DNA of 64,000 nucleotides from contig CALRSS020000003.1 of NCBI GenBank assembly GCA_943370905.1, positions 172,183-236,182 on the forward strand. Direction: 5' to 3'. Below, one piece after another: positions 18,129 to 29,185 of this stretch. The DNA is from Synechococcus sp. UW140. GTDB lineage: Bacteria; Pseudomonadota; Gammaproteobacteria; Burkholderiales; Burkholderiaceae_C. Position 1 is the first letter of the stretch; every line of letters starts with the position of its first letter. The notes under the pieces are model-generated. The model saw only the letters and a list, made by a program, of their open reading frames with translations, did not search any database and had not been told where the DNA came from. The position numbers were made by a program, and so were the translations under genes.

Positions 18129-18875
18129 TCAGCTCTGGCATTGCAGGCTCAGGGCCTGCAGCGTGCTGCCGGTTTGGGGGTCGAACACGACCAGATTCAC
18201 CTGCCGCTCGTGGCCGGGGGTTGGTGCAATGCTGCGGAAGGTCAACTTCTGGCCAGCACCGGGGGCAGGTTTGTATTCGCCGGCTTGCGTGTACTGCCGC
18301 ACGACAAAGTCATGTTTCAGGTATTCGCCCCTGTTTTCACCGGCCTGCACTTTGGAGGCGTGGCCGTGCTCGGTCACTGTCCAGTAAGCTGACCAGCTGG
18401 CCGGCACCTGCGGCCCGGGCAGGGCGGTCACCGAGGCCTCGAACTGGTCAGGCGCCAGTTGCTGCAGCGTGATGCTGGCCCTGGCGGGCTCTTTGGACTT
18501 GGGCTGGCCGCCCCAGTTGCTCCAGTCGCGGCCATCGAGCACGGCCTGGGGCGTGTAGATGCTGCGCAGCTTGTTGCGGGCGGCCACGTCGCGCTGGCGG
18601 TTGGTGTAAGCGGGCGCCGCAAACCGGTCGACCCAGCCGATGTAGTCCCAGTAGCCGACATGGAAGGCTTGCACCACCACATCCTTGCCCTTGAGGGAGG
18701 AGGCCCATTTGTCGGCAGGCGGGCAGGAACTGCAGCCCTCCGAGGTGTAGAGCTCCACCACCGGCGTGACGGTGGGCCCGGAAGTGGCCGAACATGCCCC
18801 GGGAGCGGCAAAGGCGGCAGTGGTCATCACCAGCAGGGTACTGGTGGCGAGGAATTGCTGGACGGCTGGCAACAT
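18129..18875 (-). CDS. DUF1223 secreted thioredoxin-like protein
   Basis: Signal peptide; VVELYTSEGCSSCPPAD, FHVGYWDYIGW, YTPQ. Confidence 0.88.
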   Translation of the reverse strand: MLPAVQQFLATSTLLVMTTAAFAAPGACSATSGPTVTPVVELYTSEGCSSCPPADKWASSLKGKDVVVQAFHVGYWDYIGWVDRFAAPAYTNRQRDVAARNKLRSIYTPQAVLDGRDWSNWGGQPKSKEPARASITLQQLAPDQFEASVTALPGPQVPASWSAYWTVTEHGHASKVQAGENRGEYLKHDFVVRQYTQAGEYKPAPGAGQKLTFRSIAPTPGHERQVNLVVFDPQTGSTLQALSLQCQS

Positions 18876-19694: not shown

Positions 19695-20831
19695 TCAGCG
19701 TGATCCAGGCGGCTCCAGCTTGCGCCAATGGGGTGGCAGCAGGTCCGACACCGCCGTCGGCTCCCGGCGCAGCGAGCGCCGCACGGTGGTGCTGTCCAGC
19801 GCCATGCCGTCCCTGGAGAGGTTGACATAGGCAAGTTGCTGCATCCACTGGACATCCACCTGCCCGTCCGGGCCGGGACGGGAGAAAATCAGCTCCAGCA
19901 TCCTGCGCGCTTCGCCGCTGCCCTGGCTCTGGGCCAGCCGGTACAAACGGATTGCCTCCACAAAATTGGCGGGCTGCCCCTCGCCGCGGTGGTTGCGCTG
20001 CGCGCGCGCAAAGTTTTCCTTGGCCGTGGCCAGAAGGCGTGGATCGGAGACGTTGTGCAGCCGCTCTGTCAACAGCGCTGCGTTGGCTGCGGCGGCAGGA
20101 GATCGCGGCGCTGCGGCCCGGAACTGCTGGAGTGCGTCGTTGAGGCGGTTTTCGGCGACGCTCTCGAAGCCCAGTTCCAGCCGGGCGTGAATGTTGCCGC
20201 CCTGGGCGGCGCCCAGCAGCAGACGCCTGTCTCCGGTGGACGAGCGCGCGGGTTCTCCGCGCAGGTCAGGCGTTGCGGCATGCAGCGGTGCAAGCCGGGT
20301 CGTGACCAGCCATTGAAGGTAAAGCGACCGCGGCAGGTCCACTCCGCGAAGCTGCAGGATCCAGCGGCGCGCGGCAGCCGGGTTGGGTGTTCCCTGGCAG
20401 CCTTCGATCTCGCACCAGGCGAGACCTGCCGCCGCCATGGGTTCACCCAGCTTGCGGGCGCGTTCGAACCATCGGGCGGCTTCAGCGGGGTTGTACGCCA
20501 CACCAATGCCATGCAGGTAGAGCAGGCCCAGTGTCCATGAGGCCGTGGCCTGTTGGCGGGGCGTCTGCTCCTGCTCCGGTTCGCTCGCCAAGGCCTGTGC
20601 GCGCAAGCTTGACACCTCCAGATCCAGCCCGGACGGATCGCTGGCGGCATGAAGAGCGGGCGGCGCAGCTTCGGTGGCCCGCAGGGTCTGCGCGTCGGCG
20701 TCCTGCGCTTTGAGTGGCGGGGCGGACTCGATATCGCCTTCCAGGGGAGGGACGGCTTCAGCGCTGACAGCTGCCGCTGCAGACGCGGCCAGCAGCCACA
20801 GCCCGAGTGCGCAAGACATGCCGTGCCACAT
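19695..20831 (-). CDS. Secreted Sel1-like repeat protein
   Basis: Signal-like N-terminus. Sel1 motifs LGLLYLHGIGVAYNPAEAARWFERA and HRGEGQPANFVEAIRLYRLA. Starts 22 bp after the upstream gene. Confidence 0.8.
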   Translation of the reverse strand: MWHGMSCALGLWLLAASAAAAVSAEAVPPLEGDIESAPPLKAQDADAQTLRATEAAPPALHAASDPSGLDLEVSSLRAQALASEPEQEQTPRQQATASWTLGLLYLHGIGVAYNPAEAARWFERARKLGEPMAAAGLAWCEIEGCQGTPNPAAARRWILQLRGVDLPRSLYLQWLVTTRLAPLHAATPDLRGEPARSSTGDRRLLLGAAQGGNIHARLELGFESVAENRLNDALQQFRAAAPRSPAAAANAALLTERLHNVSDPRLLATAKENFARAQRNHRGEGQPANFVEAIRLYRLAQSQGSGEARRMLELIFSRPGPDGQVDVQWMQQLAYVNLSRDGMALDSTTVRRSLRREPTAVSDLLPPHWRKLEPPGSR

Positions 20832-20852: not shown

Positions 20853-22583
20853 CTAGCGTGCGGCTGGTGGTGGTGGGGCGGCAGGCGGCGTGGCCGCCAC
20901 TGCCCGCTTCGGCCCGACCGCCCATTGCACACCTGCAAACGTATAGCCGCTGCTGCCCAGGGCCGTGGCAAAGGCCTTGTTCACCTCGTCCAGACTTGCC
21001 ACGTCACGCAGGCCGGTCAATGCCTGTGACTTGAGGAGTTGCGGCAGTTTTTCCGTTGCAGAGGCGTCCGTCGCGAAGCAGCCAACGCGATCGGTACCCA
21101 TGCTGCTGGCGTCCATGATGAAGCCGGGGCTCGGGCTCATCCAGTCGGGAATGCGGATCGCCTGGTTGGCGCTGATCAGTGCGTTGGGATTGGTCTTGTT
21201 CGGCAGCAGGCGCATGACTTTGCCGCTGGCCTCATGCAGGAAGCAATACAGGTAGGACGCGCGTGACACGGTCGCCGACAGGAAAATCTGCTCTCCGACC
21301 TCGAAGGAGGTTCGACCGACAAGCACGTTCTCGATCTGCAAATCGATTTTTCGGGGTGGTGCTGCAGCACCGTACGCTGCGGGGCCATAGGGATGTTCAG
21401 GTCTGCGCAAACCGGGCGTGGAACTGGCAACCGGCGACGCATTGCCGGCTGTCCAGCCGATCTGCTGAAGCTTTCCGTCCTGTCCCATCACGACAAAGTT
21501 ACGGAGTGCACGCTCATAGGTCGGGAAGTCGACCACGCCGGACACCACCATGCCCGAGTCGGCCTGGAACCTCCCGAGCGCCATGACGAACTCCGGATGA
21601 TTGGCATCGAGCTGTGCACCATTGGGCCCGAGATAGCCGTGGCTGATCAGTGAGTTCTGGACGAGCTTGTTGTGGAGCAAGGGTGAGCCCTGGTCATACC
21701 AGTCGCGCAGCTGGCGCTGGAAATCCGGGTGCGTCTGCTCCAGCGTCAGGCATTGCCAGTAGGGCACCCGGGCCCATTTCCCGACCAGCTCGATGGCTGC
21801 AAGATCGACCAGCGTGCGGATGGCGGCGCCGGCACCCTGCGCGTAGTCACGCCCCACGTTGAACTGCACACCGTATCGTCCTATGCGCCCGGCCAGGTCC
21901 AGGCCTTGCCCGCCGGTGGCAATGATCACCTCGTTGGCAGAGTCCAGCCCGGGAATGAGCGTGCGGGAGCGGAAATCGCCGATATGCAGTTCCAGCCCGA
22001 TGATGGTGGCGTTGCGCGTTCTGCTGTAACCCGTGTCCAGCCGGGAGGAGGCCGTGCCGACCTCAAAGCGGTTGTTGATGACGTTCTGGTCCACAAAGGC
22101 CACCGAGCCGGAGAAATAAAGCGCCGGTCGCTGAAGCTGTATCTGGTTGTTGTTGAGGAGAATCGTTGTCAGGTTCTGCACCGTGTCCTGCCGCGCAATA
22201 TCGACTTCGTAATCGACGTAACGGAAGGCGTTGCTCAGTCGTGACATCTGCGACAAAGCCGTGATGATCATGTCCTTGGTGGCGACCGGGGCACGTGTCG
22301 AAATGTCAGGAATCTGCTTGCTCGTGACCAGTGTGGTGGGCAACTCGGCCTCACGGAACAGGTAGTCCATGCACATCAGTGCGTCTGAGAAACTTGAAAC
22401 TGATCGCACAGGCCGCACCACGGGCCGGTCGGTAGCGCTGGCATAGGACTGGAACAGCGCATCGCCGCGCGGATCGGCTGGCGTGCCGCAGCCCGCCATC
22501 ATCAGGGAGCCGATGACGCACAAAATTGCGGCCTTCAAGCCAGGCCGTTGACGGACCTGGTCTGGCGAAATGAAGTGTTTCAT
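20853..22583 (-). CDS. CsgG/HfaB-like lipoprotein with peptidoglycan-binding and DUF4384 domains
   Basis: Lipobox-like MAGC. N-domain (SFSDALMCMD...FRYVD...GLELHIGD...AIRTLVDLAAIELVGK) is reminiscent of CsgG/HfaB. PG_binding_1-like ALGRFQADSGMVVSGVVD; DUF4384-like FEVGEQIFLS...YLYCF...RLLPN. Confidence 0.6.
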   Translation of the reverse strand: MKHFISPDQVRQRPGLKAAILCVIGSLMMAGCGTPADPRGDALFQSYASATDRPVVRPVRSVSSFSDALMCMDYLFREAELPTTLVTSKQIPDISTRAPVATKDMIITALSQMSRLSNAFRYVDYEVDIARQDTVQNLTTILLNNNQIQLQRPALYFSGSVAFVDQNVINNRFEVGTASSRLDTGYSRTRNATIIGLELHIGDFRSRTLIPGLDSANEVIIATGGQGLDLAGRIGRYGVQFNVGRDYAQGAGAAIRTLVDLAAIELVGKWARVPYWQCLTLEQTHPDFQRQLRDWYDQGSPLLHNKLVQNSLISHGYLGPNGAQLDANHPEFVMALGRFQADSGMVVSGVVDFPTYERALRNFVVMGQDGKLQQIGWTAGNASPVASSTPGLRRPEHPYGPAAYGAAAPPRKIDLQIENVLVGRTSFEVGEQIFLSATVSRASYLYCFLHEASGKVMRLLPNKTNPNALISANQAIRIPDWMSPSPGFIMDASSMGTDRVGCFATDASATEKLPQLLKSQALTGLRDVASLDEVNKAFATALGSSGYTFAGVQWAVGPKRAVAATPPAAPPPPAAR

Positions 22584-22701
22584 TTTCTCGTCCCTCCGCG
22601 ATGCATGGGAAAGTGAAGGTGGCCAACACATGGAACGCGCAGCGCATGTTGCCGCTGATGTCGCCTGTTCTGGCTGTATGGCATACGTCGGTCCGCCTGG
22701 C

Positions 22702-23130
22702 CTACTTGCAGATGTTCACCAGATCGCCCTTGAGCACCACAATCTGCTGGCTGTTGCCCGGCGTGTTCAGCCTTGAGCCGGCGAGCATGCTGGTCGTTGT
22801 GGTGCTGCCGACTTCCTGGATGCAGGTCTTCTTGAAGCCGTCGGAGGCAGCCTGGGTGGTGGCATCCGTATCGGTAGAGATACCTCGGGTCATGTCCGAA
22901 TTCGCCTTGGCCTCGTAGCGTGCGACCTTGGCCTTCATCCAGGCCGGCATGTCGGTAATCGATTCCATGGGCGAGCTGGTCCGGCTGCCGCCGGTCGGTG
23001 ACATCTGTACCGTGACGCGCTTGGTCAGGACCACAGGGTCTTCGCCGGGCGCATTTTGCGACCACACCGGCAGTGTGAGGCAGGTGCTGATGATGGCCAC
23101 CACGCCTGGAAGGTGCAGGGATGTTTTCAT
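22702..23130 (-). CDS. Small secreted hypothetical protein with Cys-bracketed C-terminal beta segment
   Basis: Signal peptide MKTSL...LPVWS; C-terminus CIQEVGS...SQQIVVLKGDLVNICK. Confidence 0.75.
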   Translation of the reverse strand: MKTSLHLPGVVAIISTCLTLPVWSQNAPGEDPVVLTKRVTVQMSPTGGSRTSSPMESITDMPAWMKAKVARYEAKANSDMTRGISTDTDATTQAASDGFKKTCIQEVGSTTTTSMLAGSRLNTPGNSQQIVVLKGDLVNICK

Positions 23131-23292
23131 GACGCAATCCTCCAACCTTGATGTTTGAAGAAGCCGCCGGATCAGGCCCCGCCTGACCCGGCGCGCGCTG
23201 GCATGCCACACGGGCCGCCAGAGAAAGTGCAATATCCGGAATCGCCGGTATTGGAGGGTGACTCGGACAACACTGAGGGGATCACCTGGCGC

Positions 23293-23769
23293 TCAGTTGT
23301 CGTGGCCGTGGCCGCGGCTGGAACCCGTGGTGACGCAGGCAAAGCAGGCATTGTTCGAGGCAATGTTCTGCACGGCGGTGGCGTCGCGGCCGGTGGCGCT
23401 GTTCAGGACATAGCTGCTGGCCAGTACCGTGGCCTGCATCGAATGGCCGCTGATGGTCACATCACCCACATTGGACGACAGGTTCTGCTGGGCCACAGTG
23501 TCTGCATTGGAGAGGTTGCCCACGTAGCTGCCGCGTGCAGCGACGATCTGCAGCGAGTGGCCGCGGATATCCACATCACCGGCATTGCTGGCCAGGTTTT
23601 GTTGCGCCAGTGAGTCCGTGCCGTTGGCGGTGTTGACCACGCCCGTGCTGGACAGGACGGCAATCTGTGTCGAGGTGCCTGTGATCCTGATTTCACTTGT
23701 CTCTGACGGCCCGGTTGCCATCGCTGCAGTGGCGATGGAGGACAGGGCGAGGAGTAGAAGCTTTTTCAT
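23293..23769 (-). CDS. Secreted three-repeat Q/N-ladder protein, candidate functional amyloid / beta-solenoid adhesin subunit
   Basis: Sec signal (MKKLLLLALSSIATAAMA), three imperfect 38-39 aa repeats, C-terminal CFAC, AAGGA RBS. The ORF is solid; the amyloid role is inferred. Confidence 0.75.
   Translation of the reverse strand: MKKLLLLALSSIATAAMATGPSETSEIRITGTSTQIAVLSSTGVVNTANGTDSLAQQNLASNAGDVDIRGHSLQIVAARGSYVGNLSNADTVAQQNLSSNVGDVTISGHSMQATVLASSYVLNSATGRDATAVQNIASNNACFACVTTGSSRGHGHDN
23344..23691 (-). repeat. Three tandem imperfect 38-39 codon repeats within the secreted subunit gene
   Basis: R1 aa27-65, R2 aa66-103, R3 aa104-142. Twelve invariant positions: I-x-G-x-S-x-Q...V-x-N...D-x-x-A-x-Q-N-x-x-S-N. 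Confidence 0.9.
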
Positions 23770-24373
23770 GACAGTTTCCTTCAGAAATTAAATGATGACT
23801 TCCTTGGTCTCCGTGAAATCCGGAGACCGGCCTGACGACATTGCACGGCGAAATGGTTTTTGGAGATCCCTCTTCTCCGGCGCTGTCGAGATGAAGTGTG
23901 GTGATTACTTTTATCTACTCCAATCGCCCATTGAAGTGACTCAAGTTGTGCACCTGGCGAAGGCCAACTGATTTGCCGGGGACATGCTGAACCCTGAAAC
24001 AGCTGTGTCGCTCGCTATCAATTTATGACTTTTGAAGCATCTCAATACTGGGTAGTTACAAGGTGTATCTGAGGCAACAGGCCTGAAAAAGTATCACTTT
24101 CCGGCCGGAGTTGTTTCTTAATTGACTACTTGCGTAGGCAAAACGACGGATTGGCGGGTAGCGGACGACAGCTTGAGCGGTGATGTAACAAAACGGGAAA
24201 ACATGGTGAGCGTGCGAAACCACCTGGCTGGCAGGGTTATCGGCCGCGGATGTCATTTATGCCGGTTGATTGATCTGGGTCATCAAAAGGCGAGGGCAGG
24301 GCGCCATACTCGCACCGGATTTTTGTGTACTTTTTGTGCAGGTGCCGACGCATAAAAAGAACGGGAGACAACC

Positions 24374-25156
24374 ATGAACTACGCCAATCAGTGCGTAAGC
24401 CAATCGCAGCCTGATTTTTTCGATGCGCAGGGCCTGTGGGTCAACGGGCAGACATCACACGGGGACCAGTTGCCGCTGTGGCCGGATTTCCTGACGGGGC
24501 AACCCGGCCAACCTGTTCGGGTTTTGCTGATTGATGACGATGCCCACATTCGAAAGGTGATTTCGCACGAACTGCTCGGAGACCTGCGTACCGACCTGGT
24601 GGGGGAGGCGAGCAGCATGCGGGAAGGCCGGCGTCTGATTTCGCAGCTCGAGTTTGATGTCATGCTGGTCGACCTGAACCTGGGCGACGGTACCGGCTTC
24701 GACCTGATCGACCACATGAAAACAGAACGTCCCATGGCGGAGGCGGTGGTCATTTCCGCACTCGAGGACGAAGAGCATGCCATGCATGCCTTCACGCTGG
24801 GTGCGACCGGCTATTACGTCAAGAACTCATGGTTTGGAAACTTTGCCGATGCTGTCCTGCAGGTGGCCAACGGTGGCGCCTCCATCACGCCGAGCCTTGC
24901 GCGCCGCCTCCTGAACAAGCTGCACCATCCACCGGAGTCCGGCCATTCATCCCACGGCGCGGGCAAGCGGCTGTCAGACCGGGAGAAAGAGGTGCTCAAA
25001 CTGGTGGCCGCAGGCTACACCAGCAACGAGATCGGAACGCGGCTGTTGCTGAGTTGCCAGACCGTTAATTCGCACATCAAGAACATCTATCGCAAACTGC
25101 ATGTGCGCAGCCGGGCCCAGGCTGTGAGCTATGCGGCACATCGGGGCCTTGTCTAG
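24374..25156 (+). CDS. NarL/LuxR-family response regulator
   Basis: REC (LLIDDD, LVDLNLGDGTG, GYYVK) plus HTH (LSDREKEVL...TVNSHIKNIYRKL); about 45 aa N-terminal extension. Confidence 0.93.
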   Translation: MNYANQCVSQSQPDFFDAQGLWVNGQTSHGDQLPLWPDFLTGQPGQPVRVLLIDDDAHIRKVISHELLGDLRTDLVGEASSMREGRRLISQLEFDVMLVDLNLGDGTGFDLIDHMKTERPMAEAVVISALEDEEHAMHAFTLGATGYYVKNSWFGNFADAVLQVANGGASITPSLARRLLNKLHHPPESGHSSHGAGKRLSDREKEVLKLVAAGYTSNEIGTRLLLSCQTVNSHIKNIYRKLHVRSRAQAVSYAAHRGLV

Positions 25157-25167
25157 CCGAGTCCACC

Positions 25168-26481
25168 ATGTCTGCCAACTGGACGTATGCGGATGAGGCC
25201 GCTGCACGCACCGCGCCTGGAGCAACCATGCCATGGTTTCCCGACTGGCTGGCCGAGAGGTCCAGACATGTACTGAACGCCAGGCTGCACGCGGCGTGGC
25301 AGCTGGCCCTGCTCATCTGGGTGAGCCATTTCCTGGCATCGGCTGCGCTGGTGGTGAATGGCGACGCTGACAAAAACCTCTACACCGCACACCTCGGGGT
25401 GCAGATTGTCATCATCAGCGAAGCTTTTTTCCTGCTTTCTGCCGGCAACTTCAAAAGCAGCAGGATCCTGTGGATTCTGGGTGCGCAGGGAGGTGCCACG
25501 GCCATGGCACTGGCCTGGCAGTCGTGGTCGGGCGCCCCCGGTACGCAGACCGCCTCAACGCTGGTGCTTGTCACCTTGCTGTCGGCCGTCGTGCTGACCC
25601 TTGCGCTGTGCGCTTGCGTGTATCTGCCCGGAAATTATTCAGGCTGGCTCGCGTTGGTCGGCAGCCTGCTGGGCATCGGCTTTTGCATCGAGCGAATCGT
25701 TCACGGCATGCCCCCGGGTGACATTTCCTTCCTGTCGCATCATGGCTATGCCTTGCTGGCATTGGTGGTGTGGCATGCCATGGTGGGCGCAGCCCGGCCC
25801 CGGGCGCCTCCACAGGCTGAAGGCCTCATGCCTTCCGCTGGCGCCACACAGGGCCGCTCGGGCGTGGCGCTGGCCGTCGCCCATGAGCGGCACCGGATTG
25901 CCCGGAACCTGCACGACGGGGTCGCATCGCATCTTGTCAGCATCATGTCGTCCCTGAACGAGCAGAACCCCCAGCAACAGGCACTGAGCCTGGCCCTCGA
26001 ACAGTGCCTGCTGGACATCAAGATGACTGTGGATGGCATGGAATGCGTGGACCAGAACCTGACCGACGCACTGGGCAGCTTGCGTTACCGGGTGCAGCGC
26101 CCCCTGGACAGGCTGGGCATCCGCATGATCTGGGACGTGGAGATGAGCATGGCGCTCGATCAGGTGCGTGGCCCTGACGTGGAGCACATTCTTCACATCG
26201 CCCAGGAATGCCTGTCGAATGTCATGCGTCACGCCAGCGCCTCGGAGGTGATCGTCGTCTGCCGTTACGCGGCCGATTCCGGACGCATCGAGCTGGAGGT
26301 GCGCGACAACGGCGTGGGCATCGCGTCGGGCGGTGCTGAAGGCACGTCAGGCAAGGGCCTTCACAACATCGACGAGCGGGCCCGATTGATCCACGGCAAT
26401 GTGGCCGTCTTCAGCAAGGAGGGCTCAGGAACCATCGTGTTCCTGACCTTCCCGCTCATGCTGCCGGTCGCCGGCGTGTAG
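25168..26481 (+). CDS. Multi-TM HisKA_3 sensor histidine kinase
   Basis: About 6 TM segments, ERHRIARNLHDG H-box, QECLSNVMRHA, VRDNGVG, GKGLHN. Confidence 0.9.
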   Translation: MSANWTYADEAAARTAPGATMPWFPDWLAERSRHVLNARLHAAWQLALLIWVSHFLASAALVVNGDADKNLYTAHLGVQIVIISEAFFLLSAGNFKSSRILWILGAQGGATAMALAWQSWSGAPGTQTASTLVLVTLLSAVVLTLALCACVYLPGNYSGWLALVGSLLGIGFCIERIVHGMPPGDISFLSHHGYALLALVVWHAMVGAARPRAPPQAEGLMPSAGATQGRSGVALAVAHERHRIARNLHDGVASHLVSIMSSLNEQNPQQQALSLALEQCLLDIKMTVDGMECVDQNLTDALGSLRYRVQRPLDRLGIRMIWDVEMSMALDQVRGPDVEHILHIAQECLSNVMRHASASEVIVVCRYAADSGRIELEVRDNGVGIASGGAEGTSGKGLHNIDERARLIHGNVAVFSKEGSGTIVFLTFPLMLPVAGV

Positions 26482-26713: not shown

Positions 26714-29185
26714 ATGCAAAAAATCATTCGCCAGATTGCCACCGAAATCAAGGTTCAGGAGCAGCAGATCCGTGTCGCCGTGGAGCTTCTGGACGGTGGT
26801 GCCACCGTGCCCTTCATTGCCCGGTACAGAAAGGAAGTCACCGGCGGACTGGACGACATCCAGCTGCGCGAGCTGGAATACCGTCTGGGCTACCTCCGGG
26901 AGCTGGAAGAGCGCCGCGAAGCCGTCATCAAGAGCATCGAGGAGCAGGGCAAGCTCACGCCCGAGCTGCGTGCCGCCATTGAACTGGCCGCCACCAAGCA
27001 GGACCTGGAAGATCTGTACCTGCCCTACAAGCCCAAGCGCCGCACCAAAGGGCAGATTGCCCGCGAGGCCGGCATTGAACCGCTGGCTGATGCGCTGTTT
27101 GCCAATCCTTCGCTGGTGCCAGCCGACGAGGCCGCCGCCTACGTGAAGGCCGAGAAAAACGAAAGCGGTGACGACTTCACCACGGTGCAGGCGGTGCTCG
27201 ACGGGGTGCGCGACATTTTGTCGGAGCGCTGGGCGGAAGACGCCGCCCTGGTGCAGTCGCTGCGCGGCTGGCTCTGGAACGAAGGCCTGTTTGCCTCCAA
27301 ACTGGTCACCGGCAAGGACGAGAACCTGCCAGACAACGCCAAGTTCCGCGACTATTTCGACTACGACGAACCCATCGGCCGCGTGCCTTCGCACCGTGCG
27401 CTGGCCGTGTTCCGCGGCCGCGCGCTGGAGATTCTGGATGCCAAGCTGGTGTTGCCGGAGCCACCCGAGGTGGGCACATCGGGAAAGACGGGCCCCACCG
27501 TGTCGCTCGCTGAGGGCAAGATTGCGCTGCACCTGGGCTGGAGCCACAAGGGCAGGGCAGCAGACGACCTGATCCGCAAATGCGTGGCCTGGACCTGGCG
27601 CGTCAAGCTCAGTCTGTCACTGGAGCGCGATCTCTTCACCCGCCTGCGGGAAGAGGCCGAGAAGGTGGCCATCAAGGTCTTTGCCGACAACCTGCGCGAC
27701 CTGCTGCTGGCCGCACCCGCCGGCCCGCGCGTCGTGATGGGGCTGGACCCAGGCATTCGCACCGGCGTGAAAGTGGCCGTGGTCGATGCGACCGGCAAGC
27801 TGGTCGAAACCGCCACCGTGTACCCGCACGAGCCGCGCAAGGACTGGGATGGCTCGCTGCACACGCTGGCCAGGCTGTGTGAAAAGCATGGCGTGAACCT
27901 GATCGCCATCGGCAATGGCACGGCCAGCCGCGAGACCGACAAGCTGGCGGCTGACCTGATCAAGTTGATGGCGAAAACTTCCGTTCGGGCTGAGCCTGTC
28001 GAAGCCGACCCTTCGACAGGCTCAGGGCGAACGGGAAGGGAAACTGCGGTGATCGAGAAGGTGGTGGTCAGCGAAGCGGGCGCCTCGGTGTATTCGGCCA
28101 GCGAGTTCGCCAGCCAGGAAATGCCAGACGTGGACGTGAGCCTGCGCGGCGCCGCCAGCATTGCGCGCCGGCTGCAGGACCCCTTGGCCGAGCTGGTGAA
28201 GATCGACCCGAAATCCATCGGCGTGGGCCAGTACCAGCACGATGTGAACCAGAGCGATCTGGCGCGCAGCCTCGATGCGGTGGTGGAAGACTGCGTGAAC
28301 AGCGTGGGCGTTGACCTGAATACTGCCAGCGTGCCGTTGCTGGCGCGCGTATCGGGCCTGTCGCAGACGGTGGCCAAATCGGTGGTGCGCTGGCGCGACG
28401 CCAACGGTGCCTTCGCGTCGCGGGCCGACCTGCTCAAGGTGACGGGCCTGGGCGCCAAGACCTTTGAGCAGAGTGCGGGCTTTTTGCGCCTGCGTACCCA
28501 GGTCGAAGGCAGCAACCCGCTGGACATGACGGGCGTGCACCCGGAGACCTACCCGGTGGTCGAGAAAATCATGCTGCATACCGGCAAGCCGGTGGCCGAG
28601 CTGATGGGTCGCTCCGAAATGCTCAAGACCCTGCGCCCCGAGCTGTTTGCCAACGAGCAGTTTGGCGTGATCACGGTGAAGGACATCCTGACTGAGCTGG
28701 AGAAACCCGGACGCGACCCGCGCCCTGATTTCAAGGTGGCCCGCTTCAACGACGACGTGGAAGACATCAGGGACTTGAAGGAAGGCATGACGCTGGAAGG
28801 CACTGTCAGCAACGTCGCGGCCTTCGGCGCCTTCATCGACATCGGCGTGCACCAGGATGGCCTGGTGCATGTGAGCCAACTGGCGCACAAGTTCGTCAAT
28901 GATGCACGCGAGGTGGTCAAGACTGGCGACATCGTCAAGGTGCGCGTGACTGAAGTGGACGTGGCCCGCAAGCGCATCGGACTGACCATGAAGCTGGGCG
29001 ACCCACCGGCGCGGCGGGACGGTGCGCAGGGTTTTCGCGAGAACCGCTTTGAGGGCGCAGCGCCGGGTCGGTCCGGCGGGGCAGGTCGCGCAGGCCCTTA
29101 CAGCGGGACTGCTCGTGCGCCGCAGGCTGCTGCCTCGACCGCGATGGAGTCGGCCTTCAGCAAGCTCGCCGCACTCAAAAAATAA
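26714..29185 (+). CDS. tex: Tex-family RNA-binding transcription accessory protein
   Basis: GATVPFIARYRKE, GLDPGIRTG, VSEAGASVYSAS, IGVGQYQHDV and a C-terminal S1 domain. Confidence 0.96.
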   Translation: MQKIIRQIATEIKVQEQQIRVAVELLDGGATVPFIARYRKEVTGGLDDIQLRELEYRLGYLRELEERREAVIKSIEEQGKLTPELRAAIELAATKQDLEDLYLPYKPKRRTKGQIAREAGIEPLADALFANPSLVPADEAAAYVKAEKNESGDDFTTVQAVLDGVRDILSERWAEDAALVQSLRGWLWNEGLFASKLVTGKDENLPDNAKFRDYFDYDEPIGRVPSHRALAVFRGRALEILDAKLVLPEPPEVGTSGKTGPTVSLAEGKIALHLGWSHKGRAADDLIRKCVAWTWRVKLSLSLERDLFTRLREEAEKVAIKVFADNLRDLLLAAPAGPRVVMGLDPGIRTGVKVAVVDATGKLVETATVYPHEPRKDWDGSLHTLARLCEKHGVNLIAIGNGTASRETDKLAADLIKLMAKTSVRAEPVEADPSTGSGRTGRETAVIEKVVVSEAGASVYSASEFASQEMPDVDVSLRGAASIARRLQDPLAELVKIDPKSIGVGQYQHDVNQSDLARSLDAVVEDCVNSVGVDLNTASVPLLARVSGLSQTVAKSVVRWRDANGAFASRADLLKVTGLGAKTFEQSAGFLRLRTQVEGSNPLDMTGVHPETYPVVEKIMLHTGKPVAELMGRSEMLKTLRPELFANEQFGVITVKDILTELEKPGRDPRPDFKVARFNDDVEDIRDLKEGMTLEGTVSNVAAFGAFIDIGVHQDGLVHVSQLAHKFVNDAREVVKTGDIVKVRVTEVDVARKRIGLTMKLGDPPARRDGAQGFRENRFEGAAPGRSGGAGRAGPYSGTARAPQAAASTAMESAFSKLAALKK
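27981..28034. repeat. 54-bp palindromic miniature element inserted in frame in tex
   Basis: CCGTTCG-GGC-TGAGCCTGTCGAAG-CCGACC-CTTCGACAGGCTCA-GGG-CGAACGG: perfect 14-bp and 7-bp stems; within the peptide SVRAEPVEADPSTGSGRTG. Confidence 0.88.

Follow-up and report, generated by a model that had tools for sequence, protein, structure and literature searches.

To our knowledge, CsgG-type channels are the sole known route across the outer membrane for functional amyloids, and only two of their branches have been studied, CsgG of the curli system and HfaB of the holdfast anchor. CsgG forms a nonameric outer-membrane barrel of 36 strands, and a CsgG-type pore is used in commercial nanopore sequencing. 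CsgG exports CsgA, CsgB and CsgF, and its eyelet is made by Tyr66, Asn70 and Phe71 (PMC7304575). HfaA and HfaD need HfaB to be placed at the surface, and HfaB is considered a translocator of neighbouring gene products to that site (PMC6707917). A further CsgG/HfaB-family cluster, found in Acinetobacter and Neisseria, is widespread, poorly understood and linked to the matrix (bioRxiv 10.1101/2021.05.19.444899). The subject here is gene C, which lies in a 64,000-nucleotide stretch of DNA (the window) from Synechococcus sp. UW140 (GTDB lineage Burkholderiales, Burkholderiaceae_C; assembly GCA_943370905.1, contig CALRSS020000003.1, positions 172,183 to 236,182). On grounds of sequence, modelling and analogy, its product is rather probably an oligomeric outer-membrane secretion channel of the CsgG/HfaB kind (type VIII, curli/holdfast-anchor) for two small secreted proteins, A and B, encoded in the same cassette.

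Gene C is the third of four co-directional genes, A-B-C-D, and has the following layout:

20853..22583, minus strand: gene C, a lipoprotein with domains of HfaB/CsgG-like, PG_binding_1 and DUF4384 type (576 amino acids; stop codon included in the coordinates)
22488..22583, minus strand: signal peptide and lipobox, residues 1-32 (MAGC, with Cys32 as the lipidated residue and Gly at +2)
21738..22421, minus strand: HfaB/CsgG-like alpha/beta domain, approximately residues 55-282, with the N-terminal helix FSDALMCMDYLF, a VPYWQCL motif and the invariant C71 and C278 (from hhalign, Foldseek and the PDB profile search)
21501..21728, minus strand: PG_binding_1-like helical domain, residues 286-361 (from a sub-threshold Pfam match, the matches of relatives, PDB profile matches and helices with a predicted local distance difference test score, pLDDT, above 90)
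21342..21458, minus strand: Pro/Ala/Gly-rich disordered linker, residues 376-414 (pLDDT below 50 at 381-406, and sequence)
20913..21341, minus strand: DUF4384 immunoglobulin (Ig)-like beta-sandwich with a packed alpha/beta tail, residues 415-557 (from Pfam DUF4384 and the domain model)

The longest open reading frame (ORF) of gene C extends over 20853-22631 on the minus strand. From the sequence, the ATG at 22583, which sits 8-9 nt downstream of GGAGGG, is a more plausible start than the upstream ATG at 22631. The signal marks the product as a Sec/Lol lipoprotein: the lipobox, which an earlier reading of the DNA from its sequence only (the sequence-only reading) had picked out as a lipobox-like MAGC, occupies residues 29-32, and Cys32 is at least 90% conserved, with the consensus L-x-G-C, in the 64 full-length relatives of alignment A1 (23-62% identity to the window protein), the set to which the counts of relatives below refer. 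The string SFSDALMCMD, singled out by the same reading, is found at residues 64-73. The several cysteines it remarked on number six (22, 32, 71, 278, 447 and 502), four of which are invariant in the family. The full set of invariant residues in A1 is C71-M72-D73, S117, N217, R256, G268, P274, C278, C447, P461 and C502.

On profile and model evidence, the N-terminal domain of gene C is a remote homologue of CsgG and HfaB. Twelve true HfaB genes, scoring 390-425 bits to NF037935, were retrieved for comparison, all of which (12/12) are found by a hidden Markov model (HMM) of the family N-domain, and eight HfaB proteins entered a profile-profile comparison. With hhalign, the alignment of the 64-member family profile to the HfaB profile extends from the lipobox as far as the final conserved Cys (252 columns, probability 98.5%, E 1.8e-15); the alignment to E. 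coli K-12 CsgG reaches 93.5% (E 2.2e-7) over 239 columns, taking in CsgG residues 4-273 of 277. By this sequence measure, the family profile is closer to true HfaB than to E. coli CsgG. Searched against the PDB, the family profile retrieves CsgG chains at E 5e-4; a PDB sequence search with the single protein gave nothing matching the first 300 residues. The Pfam CsgG model (PF03783) has no match anywhere in the genome, and among the relatives it is matched by 8 of 64 (best E 5.9e-8), while the NCBIfam HfaB model (NF037935) is matched by 39 (best E 5.2e-8). The relatives score 14-27 bits to the latter, against a cut-off of 300 and scores of 384-425 for true HfaB proteins.

Predicted structure points the same way. 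The AlphaFold2 model of the gene C product has a mean pLDDT of 83.3, with values above 90 across most of the N-domain, and the top 25 Foldseek matches to the PDB are all CsgG (best 6l7a_A, E 1.5e-12). Target-normalised TM-scores are 0.53-0.72 for membrane-inserted CsgG (6l7a, 4uv3 and 4q79), as against 0.35-0.43 for the pre-pore form 4uv2. Fold relatives that have no hairpins, GNA1162 (4hrv) and HpaA (8t8d), appear only at E ~1e-2, and the LpoB model has a slight match in one relative (E 0.0015). The label ‘CsgG/HfaB-like’ given by the sequence-only reading is apt. As a result that would speak against it, the reading had named an N-domain of an unrelated type without hairpins, for example TolB_N or FlgO; the N-domain matches no such fold, LpoB included, and its best structural matches are to membrane-inserted CsgG. 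Wherever it could be put to an in silico test, the sequence-only reading was borne out.

HfaB, which is defined in Caulobacterales (NF037935), shares much with the family. It too is a lipoprotein with the same alpha/beta-plus-hairpin domain, running from a lipobox to a C-terminal Cys, and it has an N-terminal ‘S-x-x-L-x-C-M’ helix and a second conserved Cys. In the family the helix motif reads T-x-F-S-x-x-L-x-C-M-D, and in HfaB T-P-Y-S-x-x-L-x-C; C71 and C278 align with the invariant HfaB cysteines, whereas E. coli CsgG is without both cysteines and the helix motif. Unlike the family, HfaB ends in a tail of ~50-60 residues and not in PG_binding_1 and DUF4384 domains. A tree was built from 22 N-domains of the family together with 12 HfaB and 22 Pfam-type CsgG sequences. 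In it the family, HfaB and CsgG each form one clade (SH-aLRT, the Shimodaira-Hasegawa-like approximate likelihood ratio test, 100, 99 and 83, respectively) with long stems between them. This tree is unrooted, its branches are long, and it singles out neither HfaB nor CsgG as the sister group. From sequence and models, we predict that the family is a deeply diverged lineage, the third in the CsgG/HfaB translocon superfamily, in which a wall anchor and an Ig-like domain are fused to the channel domain, the eyelet loop is lost and the cargo is new.

CsgG of E. coli curli (PF03783; PDB 4uv3, 4q79, 6l7a and 6si7) resembles the family in its lipobox and fold, and in that both of its membrane hairpins can be aligned. 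The segments concerned are:

21999..22088, minus strand: predicted transmembrane hairpin 1, residues 166-195, with the tip FEVGTASSRLDTGYSR (aligns with transmembrane segment TM1 of CsgG; model strands E155-178 and E182-203)
21843..21929, minus strand: predicted transmembrane hairpin 2, residues 219-247, LDLAGRIGRYGVQFNV (aligns with CsgG TM2; model strands E208-234 and E237-248)
22281..22319, minus strand: short beta1-alpha1 loop, residues 89-101, in the place of the CsgG constriction loop (hhalign gap; model secondary structure)

TM1 of CsgG is placed by hhalign on residues ~168-192 and TM2 on ~222-247, both hairpins being 4-5 residues longer than their CsgG counterparts. The two ‘beta-hairpin-like stretches’ noticed in the sequence-only reading, FEVGTASSRLDTGYSR (residues 173-188) and LDLAGRIGRYGVQFNVGRD (residues 228-246), turn out to be the tips of these segments. 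Across the family, hydrophobic residues recur at positions 175/177/179 and 182/184/186 in the tip of hairpin 1 and at 228/230/232/234 and 237/239/241/243 in hairpin 2, with small or polar residues between them. In sequence terms, this alternation is the pattern expected of the lipid-facing and lumen-facing sides of a barrel.

The family departs from CsgG in its two extra conserved cysteines and in ~300 extra C-terminal residues comprising the PG-binding and DUF4384 domains. The helical domain that the sequence-only reading had called PG-binding-like finds support in the relatives, of which 53 match Pfam PG_binding_1 (best E 6.8e-11) and 14 match PG_binding_2 (best E 2.1e-06). In the window protein itself PG_binding_1 (PF01471) matches residues 307-357 below threshold (E 4e-4, 20.9 bits, gathering score 23), and its helices are modelled with confidence. 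The family profile also matches the PG-binding domains of 8da2 and 4c2g (E 1e-4) and of 4fet in the PDB. The C-terminal Ig-like domain of DUF4384 type, likewise proposed earlier, is found directly by Pfam (PF14326; residues 427-506, E 1.1e-13, 51.5 bits, gathering score 27) and is matched by all 64 relatives (best E 6.5e-20). Modelled alone, this region has a pLDDT of 89.7 and forms an Ig-like beta-sandwich. As C447 and C502 each occupy a strand of the sandwich (443-450 and 496-505, respectively), the model suggests that they may form a disulfide. Foldseek returned generic beta-sandwich matches only for the DUF4384 domain model (best E ~1e-3, to the GlgE N-domain, GbpA, CARDB and nanobodies); this supports the fold class and nothing more, and the search for a specific function of the domain was dropped. 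The PG_binding_1 and Ig-like domains come after the C-terminal helix of the CsgG-like domain, which by analogy would lie on the periplasmic side.

More than 850 relatives are known, the closest being 94% identical (an uncultured Polaromonas metagenome-assembled genome) and 81% identical (Polaromonas species); the named relatives carry only the titles ‘DUF4384 domain-containing protein’ or ‘hypothetical protein’. The three-domain architecture is intact among the 64 relatives down to ~23% identity. With this retention and so many relatives, the architecture is, as judged from sequence, far beyond chance.

The sequence-only reading had set the protein against a single-domain canonical CsgG. The DUF4384/PG-binding half is specific to the family, but CsgG-type proteins with C-terminal extensions exist elsewhere, so that an extension alone is not unique to it. 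Two such proteins, in L119 (G395:C21) and L131 (G421:C1), have a Pfam-recognised CsgG domain with an intact D-Q-T-G-Q-[FYH]-K eyelet and long C-terminal extensions, one a Lys-rich linker followed by TPR/Sel1-like repeats and the other a Pro/Thr-rich tail. A CsgG-Sel1 Rosetta-stone link was considered and dropped, as the L119 extension gave a sub-threshold TPR_11 match only. Some genomes of the host family also encode a second, shorter paralogue, which covers profile positions 5-340 only and thus has the HfaB/CsgG-like and PG-binding domains without DUF4384. Examples are:

G570:C8:148147-149184: shorter paralogue without DUF4384
G131:C23:563914-564954: shorter paralogue without DUF4384
G030:C27:67266-68330: shorter paralogue without DUF4384

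The genes that accompany gene C in the window are:

23293..23769, minus strand: gene A, 158 amino acids, secreted, with a signal peptide and three Q/N/S/G-rich repeats of 38-39 amino acids; presumed cargo or fibre subunit
22702..23130, minus strand: gene B, 142 amino acids, secreted, with a signal peptide, the mature N-terminus APGEDPVVL and a Cys-bracketed C-terminus ending in QQIVVLKGDLVNICK
19695..20831, minus strand: gene D, 378 amino acids, starting 21 nt downstream of gene C; periplasmic, with a signal peptide and Sel1 repeats (Pfam Sel1, E 2.4e-10)
24374-25156, plus strand: NarL/LuxR-type response regulator, divergent, a likely regulator (Pfam)
25168-26481, plus strand: HisKA_3 membrane histidine kinase, divergent, a likely regulator (Pfam)

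Conservation of this arrangement was followed with a profile scan of one genome per species, using 14 closer members as the query, which found a relative in 285 species. Neighbour counts cover the best 80 loci of these 285 species, with Polaromonas, Acidovorax, Hydrogenophaga, Delftia, Comamonas, Limnohabitans, Simplicispira, Tibeticola, Caenimonas and Ramlibacter among the record titles. Gene A is a neighbour in 75/80 loci, gene B in 78/80 and gene D in 77/80, while the response regulator is present in 66/80 and the kinase in 59/80. The order and strand of A, B and D are constant across these Comamonadaceae-type loci, and the absences that were checked (L013, L017, L029, L038 and L074) all lie at contig ends. 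Among distant relatives (25-38% identity, from metagenomes and other Pseudomonadota families), most of the loci examined keep one or two repeat proteins, a B-like protein and C. The gene downstream of C switches there from Sel1 to OmpA-family and other genes, and the two-component system is not present in distant loci that keep A-B-C. L086 differs: there C runs divergently from the repeat and B-like genes and has a B-like gene downstream of it. Both A and B have signal peptides, and genes for an alternative export route are lacking in their vicinity.

Orthologues of gene A vary between genera in repeat number, from 3 to 8 or more (L006-L085). Their unit of ~38 amino acids follows the pattern S-x-Q ... 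N-x-A ... A-x-Q-N-L-[AS]-S-N-x-G-x-V, and the C-terminus is mostly QNIASNxxC..C; counterparts in other families carry different repeats of ~34 amino acids, GNT.[IV]NT.V.GGV.Q.V.GSNNKATTNVGG[IM]QG. Orthologues of gene B keep the APGEDPVV mature N-terminus (in Comamonadaceae-type loci), an ARYEAKA motif and the Cys-bracketed C-terminus. Only two cysteines of B are invariant, bracketing its C-terminal third (alignment A4), and a near-invariant C-terminal motif, VV[LV][RK]GD[LV][IV]N[IV]C-x, survives at ~25% identity; distant B-like proteins end in ...GDVI(N/S)VCK.

Neither A nor B, nor their distant counterparts, has a match in Pfam or NCBIfam, Curlin_rpt included. A curli accessory identity for B finds no support in hhalign (probability 0.2% for the B family against CsgF and CsgE), nor does an Hfa partner identity for A or B: HfaA aligns to the B family at 6.8%, through the signal peptide only, and to A at 2.7%. 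In the true hfaA-hfaB-hfaD loci (L096-L107), HfaA has the C-terminal motif A-[IV]-G-N-x-L-N-V-[IV]-x-x-G-x-x-N-T-[IV]-[IV]-[IV]-[ND]-S-x-Q-x-N-x-G, which by eye recalls VVLRGDLVNIC of B, although hhalign finds no relation. A scan of the operon for promoters and terminators gave nothing exceeding shuffle expectation.

Set beside the described systems, the cassette resembles curli in coupling a channel to small secreted Q/N-rich repeat proteins as operon partners, and its divergent LuxR-family regulator resembles the csgDEFG/csgBAC layout (E. coli K-12 locus L001). Unlike curli, it has no homologues of CsgE, CsgF or CsgC and no curlin repeats. Like gene C, HfaB is encoded directly after a small secreted protein, but its partners HfaA and HfaD have no detectable similarity to A, B or the Sel1 protein of the cassette, and the hosts also differ, the family being carried by Comamonadaceae-type genera and by other Pseudomonadota, which have neither stalks nor a holdfast. 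The cluster of three lipoproteins known from Acinetobacter baumannii and Neisseria (CsgG-like and GNA1162-like), in Acinetobacter the only ‘curli-like’ orphan cluster to have been studied, is also built on a CsgG-family lipoprotein; it differs in having a Pfam-recognisable CsgG and two further lipoproteins, and is without a repeat protein, PG-binding domain or DUF4384. Fap is similar in logic only, its operon combining a repeat-containing subunit of the fibre with a minor one and an exporter in the outer membrane. That exporter, FapF, is no CsgG-fold lipoprotein but a trimeric 12-stranded barrel, and no Fap family came up in the general Pfam and NCBIfam scans. As far as sequence goes, the channel domain is the cassette's only link to curli and Hfa.

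By analogy with these systems, we infer ring formation, export and wall binding for the gene C product. The hairpins of several protomers would form an outer-membrane beta-barrel after the manner of the CsgG nonamer, while the alpha/beta domains would make up a periplasmic vestibule, beneath which a ring of PG-binding domains would fix the channel to the cell wall. Protein A, with its variable number of Q/N-rich repeats, would be exported unfolded and assemble on the surface, and is likely to be a fibre or adhesin subunit; B, probably also exported unfolded, is likely to act as a nucleator, adaptor or cap. Without the eyelet loop of CsgG, the lumen would be either wider or made narrow by a partner. 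For substrate delivery or gating, the role of CsgE in curli, the strongest candidates are DUF4384 on its tether and the periplasmic Sel1 protein D. Between them, B, D and DUF4384 would supply the nucleation, adaptor, chaperone or gating roles of CsgB, CsgF, CsgE and CsgC. Expression of the operon would be turned on by the divergent two-component system, a part played by CsgD in curli.

A more elaborate version of this scheme is a self-contained, wall-anchored machine of type-VIII-like kind. Here B would insert its APGEDPV N-terminus in the barrel as a constriction, like CsgF, and nine DUF4384 domains tethered by ~40-residue linkers would, with the Sel1 protein, form a CsgE-like cap that captures A below the peptidoglycan and feeds it to the vestibule, the product being a new class of surface fibre with no relation to curlin, Fap or HfaA. 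Taken in all its detail, this version is speculative and we regard it as unlikely.

Several observations weigh against a channel of the CsgG/HfaB kind. Pfam CsgG (gathering score 20.8 bits) has no match on the N-domain even at E<=10, and NCBIfam HfaB has none on the gene C product; the direct Pfam match to which the sequence-only reading had looked is thus missing, and homology is seen only at the level of profile and fold. In the AlphaFold2 model the geometry between domains is uncertain (predicted TM-score, pTM, 0.58). Hairpin 1 is more polar here than in the family consensus, with T177 and S179 where relatives have I, V or L. Tyr66, Asn70 and Phe71 of CsgG fall in a 12-column gap of the family in the hhalign alignment and have no counterpart; the beta1-alpha1 loop is 13 residues long in the model, 12 shorter than in E. 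coli CsgG, and the loop of HfaB there, after D-x-T-G, is 8 residues longer than that of the family. The constriction loop being deleted, the eyelet must be either different or supplied in trans. PG_binding_1 domains are not always peptidoglycan-binding. Finally, we infer the cargo role of A and B from synteny, these proteins having no similarity to CsgA, CsgB, CsgE, CsgF or HfaA.

The translocon might instead serve a holdfast-anchor-like system, in which A and B, instead of building a fibre that stands by itself, would be the surface anchor for an exopolysaccharide or other matrix polymer, as HfaA and HfaD are in Caulobacter. The hhalign result that sets the N-domain nearer to HfaB than to E. 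coli CsgG is consistent with this, as are the N-terminal Cys-helix and C-terminal Cys common to the family and HfaB and not CsgG, and the 39 relatives that match NF037935; however, those matches lie at ~25 bits against the cut-off of 300, and the family and HfaB are separate clades in the tree. The related Acinetobacter CsgG/HfaB-family cluster affects poly-N-acetylglucosamine (PNAG) and the matrix, not curli (bioRxiv 10.1101/2021.05.19.444899), but no genes for polysaccharide synthesis or export were noted flanking the cassette, either at 17-27 kb of the window or in distant loci. The partners, too, argue against an anchor: A and B are without HfaA similarity, D is a Sel1 protein and not HfaD-like, and fibre or adhesin subunits typically have a variable repeat number, as A does (3 to 8 or more). 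An anchor of this kind therefore seems improbable to us.

It is also doubtful, and in our view unlikely, that the gene C product is no pore at all but a periplasm-facing outer-membrane lipoprotein on a CsgG/TolB-N/LpoB-like scaffold, which with the help of its PG-binding domain links outer membrane and wall or controls a wall enzyme. Its hairpins would then be artefactual or folded back as in the pre-pore. The alpha/beta core is common to non-pore lipoproteins, as the weak Foldseek matches to GNA1162 and HpaA and the one LpoB match recall, but CsgG matches better than the hairpin-less folds by at least 9 orders of magnitude in Foldseek. The missing constriction loop and the rather polar hairpin 1 of the window protein would suit a protein that is not a pore, yet the CsgG alignment spans both transmembrane hairpins, here longer than in CsgG, and the alternation at their tips is kept to ~23% identity, a pattern that a soluble loop would not be expected to preserve. 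OmpA-family wall-binding genes adjoin the gene in distant loci, which would fit a tether; the strict linkage to two small secreted proteins would, however, be left unexplained.

That DUF4384 and the PG-binding domain sense a periplasmic or wall ligand and signal to the adjoining histidine kinase, with A and B as unrelated envelope proteins, is very improbable: a two-component system does accompany most loci, titles of papers mention DUF4384 alongside caspase homologues and Ser/Thr kinases, and caspase-like genes lie near two distant cassettes, but the two-component system is missing from distant A-B-C loci, a hairpin domain of CsgG/HfaB type has no known sensing role, and fibre systems, curli among them, normally have a divergent regulator operon.

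Returning to the secretion channel, its interest lies in the family being a third branch that current domain models have missed. Its distinctive features are the fused wall anchor and Ig-like domain, a new kind of cargo and the deleted eyelet loop, which suggests another pore diameter or gating principle. If the proposal is true, the cassette would be a new surface-fibre or adhesin system for the biofilms of freshwater, soil and wastewater bacteria, and the channel a natural CsgG-fold pore with a different geometry. As the carriers include culturable Delftia, Acidovorax, Hydrogenophaga, Comamonas, Limnohabitans and Polaromonas, it is directly testable. No paper joining DUF4384 and CsgG was found in the literature searched, and the cassette was not found in that on CsgG-like lipoproteins with peptidoglycan or on Comamonadaceae functional amyloids.

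The cassette is a patchy accessory module. The family is present in 37/200 sampled genera of the host family (~18%), and one other genome of the window's own genus lacks it. Across the phylum it is found in 20/401 sampled genomes (~5% of Pseudomonadota), in nine GTDB families. Over 22001-26000 of the window, which takes in A, B, the intergenic region and the two-component system, G+C is 0.593-0.597, as against ~0.65 on both sides. This drop, together with the absence within the genus and the presence in ~18% of sampled genera, suggests that the module moves horizontally.

The flanks of the cassette are ordinary: on one side a DUF1223 protein (18129-18875, minus strand, E 1e-46) and on the other an ORF of 823 amino acids (26714-29185, plus strand) that is Tex-like by eye. 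They adjoin the cassette only in the closest Polaromonas relatives, and the insertion site therefore differs between genera. The caspase-like genes near two distant cassettes are of the Peptidase_C14 type (L002 6178-7830 and L005 6599-7198), and one of them is fused to Sel1 repeats; in L002 an autotransporter gene is also nearby.

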